64,000 nt of DNA from positions 34,288,001 through 34,352,000 of the forward strand of contig OZ249436.1 of assembly GCA_965235115.1 (NCBI GenBank). Reading direction: 5' to 3'. Below are positions 21,053 to 22,287 of this stretch, in pieces. This DNA is from Laetmonice hystrix (lineage: Eukaryota). The stretch's first letter is position 1. The number at the start of each line of letters is the position of its first letter. The notes under the pieces were generated by a model. That model made no database searches. It was given only the letters and a program-made list of their open reading frames with translations, and was not told the DNA's origin. A program made the position numbers and the translations under genes.

Positions 21053-22287
21053 GTACGTCTTTCGGTGAGTTTTGTCTATGTTAGGGTCGGCAGTAATTTT
21101 TGAGGGGGTCGGACACCTTGCCCTGGCAGTTCTAGGGGTGACGCTCTCCAGCTTGACTGGGGCGTGCCGCGCCTGGCCCGGCCACGGCACAGTGTCTGGC
21201 GGGCAGACCCAGATCATGTGTACTGACAGGAGTCCGTTAGCATCTATAGAGCAGCCTTGTTTAGTGGTCACAACACTCTTTTATGAAGAGCCAAAAAACC
21301 GGGTGATCTATATACTGACAGAATAGTGTATGTAATGAAGGTAATATATTCACAACTCTGGTTGGTCTGCCTTGAATGCATAGCTCATTTTGACTTTGGC
21401 AATCTAGGAGGCAAAAGCTATAACATGTCTCATTAGGGCTTCTGAGCATCTGACAAGCCACGTGGACCGACTCTTGCAGTATAGCAGTGGTAGTAGTAGT
21501 AGTAGTACTATGGCTAGTAGAAACAGGCGTGGCGTGGTGTCCCAACTCCCGTCTTGTTACATGCACACCCACCACGCTGGAATTAGCAGTAGGAGGAAGT
21601 TAAAGTCATTGCATTGCTTAGCCGTGATCACCGACTGGCACTGGCATCTCGGCGGAGCTGTGACGGTGGTGCTAGATCTATTGCAACATCAGCATCAGCA
21701 CCAGCAGCATCAGCCGCAGTACAGGCTGGGAAAGGCTCTATACGAAGCCCCTATACGGTTCTCCAGATCAGTGCCGAATAACCCGTTGCATTATTATAGC
21801 TGGCACGGCCAGTAGATTAGGAGATGGGGCCAGATACGGCCGCAGACGGATCAAACTGACCTGTGGCCTTACTGAGGGGTCAGCATGAGTGCAGGAGACC
21901 GTCGTAGCGGGAGGATAGAGGAATTGGGTCGGCGGTGGTTGTGGTAGCTAGGCCCCGTGGACGAGATGAACCAGCTCAGCGCTCCATGGCCGTCTGGTTG
22001 GACGATTACGACAACGACGACGGCAGCGGGCCCCGCCTCTACCGGCGGCGGGCCGGGGTCTGCCGGTGGGGGAGGAGGAGGCGGCGGTCCGCAGCCTCAG
22101 CCTCCGCCGCAGCCTCAGCCACCACCGCCGTCCATCTATTGTGATTCCTCCCCCTCCTCGCCCACCTCCTCCTCCTCGCTAGCCATGGCTCTCGACGTGA
22201 CAGGGACGGCGGCGGACACGACAGTCGACGCTACCGAGCTCCGTTTCCGCCGGTTCTCAAGCATATTCCGTGTTCTCTCTATTTCAG
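21053..22287 (+). other. Intron 1 of NR2F (1235 nt, phase 1)
   Basis: GT...AG boundaries at the conserved nuclear-receptor junction MRRE/AVQ. Confidence 0.9.

Follow-up and report, generated by a model that had tools for sequence, protein, structure and literature searches.

A conserved open frame at the end of intron 1 of the Laetmonice hystrix COUP-TF gene, a candidate N-terminus of a receptor without the DNA-binding domain

In the COUP-TF gene of Laetmonice hystrix, the last part of intron 1 stays open in the reading frame of exon 2. This raises the question of whether it is translated and, if so, whether it begins a receptor without the DNA-binding domain (DBD), as the first-pass annotation had proposed by analogy with human NR2F2. 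The window, as the term is used here, is the whole analysed stretch of 64,000 nucleotides (GCA_965235115.1, contig OZ249436.1, positions 34,288,001 to 34,352,000 of the forward strand), and all coordinates of the gene are those of the window.

Structure of the gene and of the open frame

A single COUP-TF/NR2F gene was found in the 64-kb window, and its joined exons encode an open protein of 412 aa. It contains a C4 zinc-finger DBD (PF00105), an NR2F-type ligand-binding domain (LBD; PF00104) and two introns, both of phase 1. This matches the family pattern of two conserved phase-1 introns, one where the DBD ends and another inside the LBD, given in the available part of PMC8608329. The top named homologues among the best 120 of 1993 protein matches are NR2F/COUP-TF of octopus, brachiopod, nemerteans and other molluscs; the relative P0004 matches the COUP-TFII structure 3CJW with E=6.5e-149, while a tree of 24 rows left the window sequence without placement. 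No further protein-coding gene was evident on inspection of the ORFs of at least 100 codons across the 64 kb. The gene is composed of the following parts:

20617–21052, + strand: exon 1, coding part, with the A/B region and the DBD (Pfam zf-C4 PF00105, E=1.6e-31; donor GT at 21053)
21053–22287, + strand: intron 1, phase 1, 1235 nt (from the sequence and the joining of exons into 412 aa)
22288–22815, + strand: exon 2, hinge and first part of the LBD (Pfam Hormone_recep, E=5.2e-23)
31930–32204, + strand: exon 3, remaining LBD and stop (Pfam Hormone_recep, E=3.9e-13)

Long purine/pyrimidine simple-repeat tracts lie at 9100–9950, 45400–45960 and 60780–61080. A second donor-like sequence, GTGAGT (21065–21070), is located 12 nt 3' of the exon-1 donor; its use would insert four residues behind the DBD, similar to the short insertions of G-R type that several database isoforms of molluscs and spiders show. 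The GC-rich region directly 3' of the stop codon (32225–32807) contains open frames of 164–192 codons on both strands, which are probably due to chance and illustrate how readily GC-rich frames stay open.

The elements of the open frame reported in the first-pass annotation, namely the TAG at 21945–21947, the stop-free exon-2 frame at 21948–22287, two in-frame ATGs and the quoted translation, are all present in the sequence. The ATGs are those at 21966 (GACGAGATGAAC) and 22185 (CTAGCCATGGCT). Overlooked at that stage was an out-of-frame ATG between them, at 21986, which could damp the use of ATG 22185. The following features were read from the sequence:

21945–21947, + strand: in-frame TAG, 5' bound of the open frame
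21966–22286, + strand: candidate alternative N-terminus of 107 codons from the first ATG, for a predicted DBD-less receptor of 374 aa; alignment with P0001 runs from the first Met as far as exon 2
21986–22144, + strand: out-of-frame ORF of 52 codons between the in-frame ATGs, a possible upstream ORF
22185–22187, + strand: second in-frame ATG (GCCATGG), for a predicted DBD-less receptor of 301 aa; a Met lies near the matching position in relatives

The open stretch 21948–22287 has 66.8% G+C. When it is shuffled 20,000 times each by mononucleotides and by dinucleotides, 9.0% and 13.0% of the shuffles, respectively, are stop-free; of 72 tile-frames of 340 nt outside exons and with a G+C content of 58% or more, 5 are. 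The length of the open frame alone is no more than chance gives. The third-position bias among neighbouring codons (16/9/33 in the candidate frame) does not discriminate either, since another ORF of the intron shows 4/10/23. The latter is a further open frame of 135 codons in the exon-2 frame (21408–21815), which includes a His/Gln repeat and two ATGs (21510 and 21561).

DNA and protein searches, both of which pass over simple repeats, found the extension to be single-copy in the genome; there is therefore no sign of a repeat or a borrowed exon. No TATA, CCAAT or GC box was found near the ATGs in the window sequence, and the best Protein Atlas score was 0.88, below the mark of 0.9.

Conservation of the intron end in relatives

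The protein search with the extension and exon 2 ranked three genomic read-through ORFs, P0001–P0003, at the top (best 120 of 1993 matches); a cluster look-up added P0122 and P0123, and the five ORFs form three 90% clusters. The linker signature of the window's exon 2 is present in 6 of 195 proteins, namely these five ORFs and the normally spliced P0004. An extension of 73–111 residues is kept in all five genomic ORFs bearing the signature, a sampling by ORFs that overlooks relatives whose ORF begins within exon 2. The conserved parts of the extension are:

22224–22286, + strand: conserved block of 21 codons ending at the exon-2 acceptor; 19/21, 17/21 and 17/21 residues identical in P0001, P0003 and P0002, respectively
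22254–22277, + strand: core FSSIFRVL, resembling the F/YSxxLxxL/Y helix that binds NR2E/F receptors, with Phe at the central Leu (from the sequence of the window and relatives)

Frame preservation in related sequences had been suggested earlier as a check. Length differences between the relatives are all in frame, with 17–19 of the 21 terminal residues identical: the spacing from ALD to LRFRR is 17, 17, 28 and 30 codons across four lineages, and the changes of 11 and 13 codons lie outside the block. Six distinct substitutions were found within the block, five of them with a BLOSUM62 score of at least 1, versus 37 of 139 single-base neighbours (p=0.006), in a test that is small, with six changes in four lineages related to an unknown degree. 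The expected share of such changes is 23–27% depending on the weighting, and their excess survives transition weighting (p=0.003–0.005).

With the last 21 residues omitted, P0001 still aligns with the window from the first Met, and none of 1000 shuffles reach the score; the four gaps of this alignment (2, 18, 3 and 1 codons) sit in triplet repeats, which vary by threes without coding constraint. The upstream part of P0123 aligns marginally (32/1000 shuffles reach the score), and that of P0002 shows no alignment with the window above chance (551/1000). Upstream 'blocks' matched by eye in P0002 were dropped, as the same proportions of shuffles were as good. The weakness or loss of the upstream alignment in P0123 and P0002 indicates that constraint is concentrated in the last 21–23 codons. 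The emphasis of the first-pass annotation on low-complexity runs was thus misplaced; the Pro/Gln run is missing from P0001.

Further searches were made for relatives. A region-limited protein search returned only P0001 among 11 candidates and was insensitive, because P0002 and P0003 were missed. No additional family member emerged when 8000 candidates were searched with a profile and 1.84 billion representatives with phmmer. At the DNA level, an exact pattern scan of metagenome contigs gave 0 matches, a profile scan of the same type of contigs gave nine loci, none with the window-type extension, and 0 of 62 candidates were confirmed in genome contigs.

The conservation in relatives gives real support to the coding potential proposed earlier, which the open frame itself, being no better than chance, does not. 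Judged by these comparisons, the intron-1 end is probably a real coding extension.

The main alternative at this level is a DNA or RNA element at the intron end, such as a branch point, a pyrimidine tract or a splicing or enhancer element, in which case high G+C and conserved nucleotides would account for the open frame and its translation. The block shares sequence with the pyrimidine tract of the real acceptor, GC-rich frames are frequently stop-free, and an element of this kind occurs at the equivalent site in vertebrate NR2F1. Among vertebrate NR2F1-type proteins, three frames are used to read the intron-1 end (5, 7 and 4 of 32 proteins), all of which fit one 13-base DNA string; on sequence grounds, this vertebrate end is an element conserved at the DNA level, unlike the window lineage, where a single frame is kept across four lineages. 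The conservative nature of the substitutions, even under transition bias, and the spacing shifts of 11 and 13 codons that keep the frame outside the block also speak against such an element, as do the lack of a stable RNA fold (z=0.37) and of any Rfam family at the gathering score (one sub-threshold match, 22.4 bits versus 39). It is considered an unlikely explanation, though the least unlikely of the alternatives.

Sixteen vertebrate NR2F1 isoforms (P0059, P0060, P0067 and 13 others) translate the intron-1 end in differing frames; the isoforms reading this end are probably annotation artefacts.

Start codon or splice site

A coding extension may begin at an ATG or be joined to exon 1. In the latter case, exon 1 would be spliced to AG 22182 (or 22203 or 22224, the other in-phase AGs of the window), placing 35 (28 or 21) residues between the DBD and the hinge, and the product would be a full-length receptor with altered DNA binding or co-regulator access. 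The first of these sites, overlooked in the first-pass annotation, is as follows:

22180–22182, + strand: in-phase TAG, candidate alternative acceptor for a 35-aa insertion behind the DBD, or entry for a non-coding first exon; 17/20 pyrimidines upstream

Its pyrimidine tract is as good as that of the real exon-2 acceptor (16/20), and the best-conserved sequence is located 3' of it. Insertions at the same junction were found in 22 of 102 full-length proteins, many of which are mollusc RefSeq isoforms and some vertebrate intron read-through models. The COUP-TF of the sea urchin has a 21-residue insertion at the exon 1/exon 2 point. Such hinge or C-terminal-extension isoforms of NR2F resemble the proposed insertion in that their additional residues lie exactly at this junction, but most of the mollusc cases begin with G-R, i.e., are donor-side extensions, and none has the window motif.

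The evidence from relatives runs the other way. By the genetic code, an AG matching 22182 is impossible in P0003 and P0123, which have a Met codon there, and one matching 22224 is impossible in P0001 (Met-Ile). At two positions within the block all four lineages could have AG, but the window does not; outside those positions, each relative could still have some AG. The similarity of P0001 extends 70 codons 5' of 22182, up to the first Met. Among 231 proteins, none combines the motif with a DBD, and splicing to exon 3 was seen in 0 of 5 proteins with the window motif and 0 of 16 with the second-lineage motif described below. Met residues precede exon 2 by 34 codons in P0001, 45 and 47 in P0003 and P0123, and 42 in P0002 and P0122, with another further up, bearing in mind that a database ORF may show a GTG or TTG codon as its first Met. 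ATG-led translation of a DBD-less form was therefore ranked above the hinge insertion, because matching AGs are excluded in relatives and Met residues are present in all lineages; the insertion is regarded as improbable.

An open frame without function, its likeness to relatives being due to recent shared ancestry, is very improbable, for although 9–13% of shuffles stay open and GC-rich frames behind the stop codon are open for 164–192 codons, P0002 retains 17/21 terminal residues and yet, upstream of them, is no more similar to the window than shuffles are.

ATG-led translation at the intron-1 end was also indicated in a second lineage. Three of the nine metagenome loci, L002–L004, carry another in-frame peptide at this place, and the other six have only 1–10 open codons. 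The features of this lineage are:

L002 2350–2434, L003 194–293, L004 662–761: second-lineage ATG-led peptide (P0011, P0137–P0150, P0152)
L002 2270–2300, L003 135–165, L004 600–635 (approximate): GATA-type stretch, candidate promoter or 5' UTR element

Between L002 and L003, the final 13 codons of the intron show 2/0/10 differences at codon positions 1/2/3 (10/12 third; p=5e-4), with 5 synonymous and 5 non-synonymous codon changes. L003 and L004 differ by 1/0/5 over 33 codons (p=0.018), with 4 synonymous changes and 1 non-synonymous, at an overall rate (6/99) equal to that upstream (11/182). In L004, in-frame stops precede the ATG of the peptide, and a 1-nt gap between L003 and L004 lies just upstream; the peptide of L002–L004 therefore begins at the ATG and not at an alternative acceptor. 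It is present in 16 of 18 genomic ORFs with the signature of this lineage, 27–29 codons long from a shared Met. Homology with the window-type peptide is not supported (hhalign P=0.3), and blastn of window positions 19000–23000 against L002–L010 gave exon matches only. A loose pattern common to both peptides (5/5 distinct ends versus 0/31 others) was post hoc and was not counted.

The second-lineage peptide is unannotated and has a clear third-position substitution pattern; the conserved non-coding stretch with a GATA-type site lies about 50–70 nt 5' of its ATG. The six loci L005–L010 represent a divergent lineage, in which the hinge and loop are expanded by Ala/Gly/Ser and exon 2 is apparently interrupted by an extra intron. 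Met-led open stretches before exon 2 also occur in ticks (45 residues; P0096, P0115, P0198–P0200) and spiders (22–24 residues; P0090, P0201–P0203), where they share the ending Cys-x-Leu-Cys-Pro.

The predicted receptor and its possible docking helix

According to the preferred reading, the 3' end of intron 1 also serves as coding sequence. A transcript starting within intron 1, or coming from a non-coding first exon, would continue directly into exon 2, and its translation would begin at ATG 21966, ATG 22185 or both, yielding a COUP-TF without the A/B region and the DBD but with a complete LBD, whose N-terminus would consist of a flexible low-complexity arm followed by the conserved 21-residue block. 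The open frame, its conservation at the protein level and the in-frame length changes are observed directly; translation, the start site and partner binding of the short form would follow from them by inference. As the start of a DBD-less isoform with a conserved new N-terminus, the intron-1 end is given an even chance on the comparative data. This part of the earlier proposal ranks first among the explanations, helped by the ATG-led peptide of the second lineage and by the bivalve models described below, while the acceptor at 22182 could instead give an insertion in a DBD-containing receptor.

The closest known system is NR2F2 isoform 2 of human and mouse (COUP-TFII_V2, NR2F2-Iso2), which has no DBD, binds the full-length receptor and modulates the latter's activity in either direction according to context, as stated in the available parts of PMC8997336, PMC7016888 and PMC10073109. 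The form predicted from the window would likewise have no DBD, the same LBD and its own short N-terminus, and could act through dimers with full-length COUP-TF and co-regulator binding rather than through DNA. The human parallel drawn earlier is sound in that a DBD-less isoform exists, but not in the position of its start: NR2F2 isoform 2 has its own first exon and start upstream of the canonical promoter, spliced to exon 2, and not in intron 1 (PMC8997336 and PMC10073109, available parts). The window extension is not such a separate first exon, though a non-coding exon may precede it; it is contiguous with exon 2, overlaps the intron-1 acceptor and is longer (34 or 107 residues). It is not an orthologue of NR2F2-Iso2 and at best would work like it. 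The term 'dominant negative' used in the first-pass annotation is too narrow, since inhibition or enhancement by context is reported in the available text of the same two papers. The mechanism of the mammalian DBD-less isoforms is described as unclear in the available part of PMC7016888.

DBD-less forms are also represented in invertebrates. Predicted RefSeq models of bivalve NR2F without the DBD were found in Saccostrea (XP_062571910.1, XP_062571911.1, XP_061172982.1) and Mytilus (XP_071167135.1, VDI02830.1). They are lophotrochozoan COUP-TFs with a first-exon peptide of 29–42 residues that ends alike in oysters and mussels but is unrelated to that of the window, in which tblastn finds no match. 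The common peptide end of the oyster and mussel models (P0182, P0186, P0187, P0024, P0196) suggests an old bivalve alternative first exon. Drosophila seven-up has a DBD-less isoform. A literature search, made largely in the main text of papers outside subscription, found nothing on an intron-1-encoded N-terminus of an invertebrate COUP-TF, and such isoforms go unmentioned in the available parts of PMC4227642, PMC7827873 and PMC13666137.

For the conserved block, an interaction helix is the most plausible role. The leading guess is that it may dock on the surface used by BCL11A/NSD1-type helices, in cis across the hinge of about 30 residues or in trans. BCL11A and NSD1 use the F/YSxxLxxL/Y helix to bind NR2E/F LBDs, and Ala at position 5 abolishes this binding, Phe there not being reported (PMC3834829, available part, according to which its supplements list further motif-bearing proteins). 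Such helices engage helices 3, 10 and 12 of the autorepressed NR2F LBD (available parts of PMC3834829 and PMC12455566); the NSD1 helix on NR2F6 rests on these helices, with two leucines buried and the serine hydrogen-bonded (PMC12455566, same part). The core FSS[I/M]FRVL has F-S at positions 1–2, hydrophobic residues at 4–5 and Leu at 8, as in the BCL11A RID1/RID2 and NSD1 helices, so that the F/Y-S of positions 1–2 and the L/Y of position 8 are both present and are invariant in the window and 5/5 relatives. In contrast to those helices, Phe replaces the essential central Leu at position 5 in all six sequences, because of which the core fails the strict F/YSxxLxxL/Y consensus, and it is located in the receptor's own chain. 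When the motif pattern is relaxed, it matches 5 of 168 acceptor-like site-frames of the window, this site among the five.

Predicted docking of the 36-residue peptide on the LBD of a relative (P0004) gave 0.45 versus 0.01 for the best of three controls, with a method uncalibrated for peptides; at least 68% of contacts were common to the runs, with a partner pLDDT of at least 48 and no contacts listed. Of the solved pairs, 51 of 78 attained the docking mark, as did 2 of 108 mismatched pairs; in eukaryotes, the figures were 39 of 65 for solved pairs lacking a like complex and 2 of 126 for unrelated ones. At a score of 0.60 or less the mark was attained by only 5 of the 78 solved pairs, and all 4 mismatches (of 180) that passed lay in this range. 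As like complexes have been solved (NR2F6-NSD1, TLX-atrophin), the score may reflect memory. Taken as a model, the docking lends weak support to a mimic helix. An AlphaFold2 model of the extension with exon 2 was discarded (pLDDT 35). That the block is a mimic of a co-repressor helix, provided that it is coding, is possible but doubtful.

If the intron-1 end is a conserved start of a DBD-less receptor written over the intron-1 acceptor, standard gene models would miss this invertebrate form, and the DBD-less design would have arisen independently. If an alternative acceptor is used instead, the result would be a conserved hinge-insertion isoform of more modest significance. For the DBD-less form a mechanism is on offer: the conserved 21-residue segment may sit in the non-canonical co-regulator site known from the NR2F6-NSD1 structure solved in 2025. 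A broader and rather improbable conjecture is that the short COUP-TF carries its own plug for the docking site of BCL11/NSD1, blocking co-regulator recruitment on itself and on full-length partners, and that the intron tip was recruited repeatedly. If true, this tip would have become an alternative N-terminus more than once in animals (L002–L004; possibly ticks and spiders) and would represent a recurring, unannotated control layer of NR2F genes.
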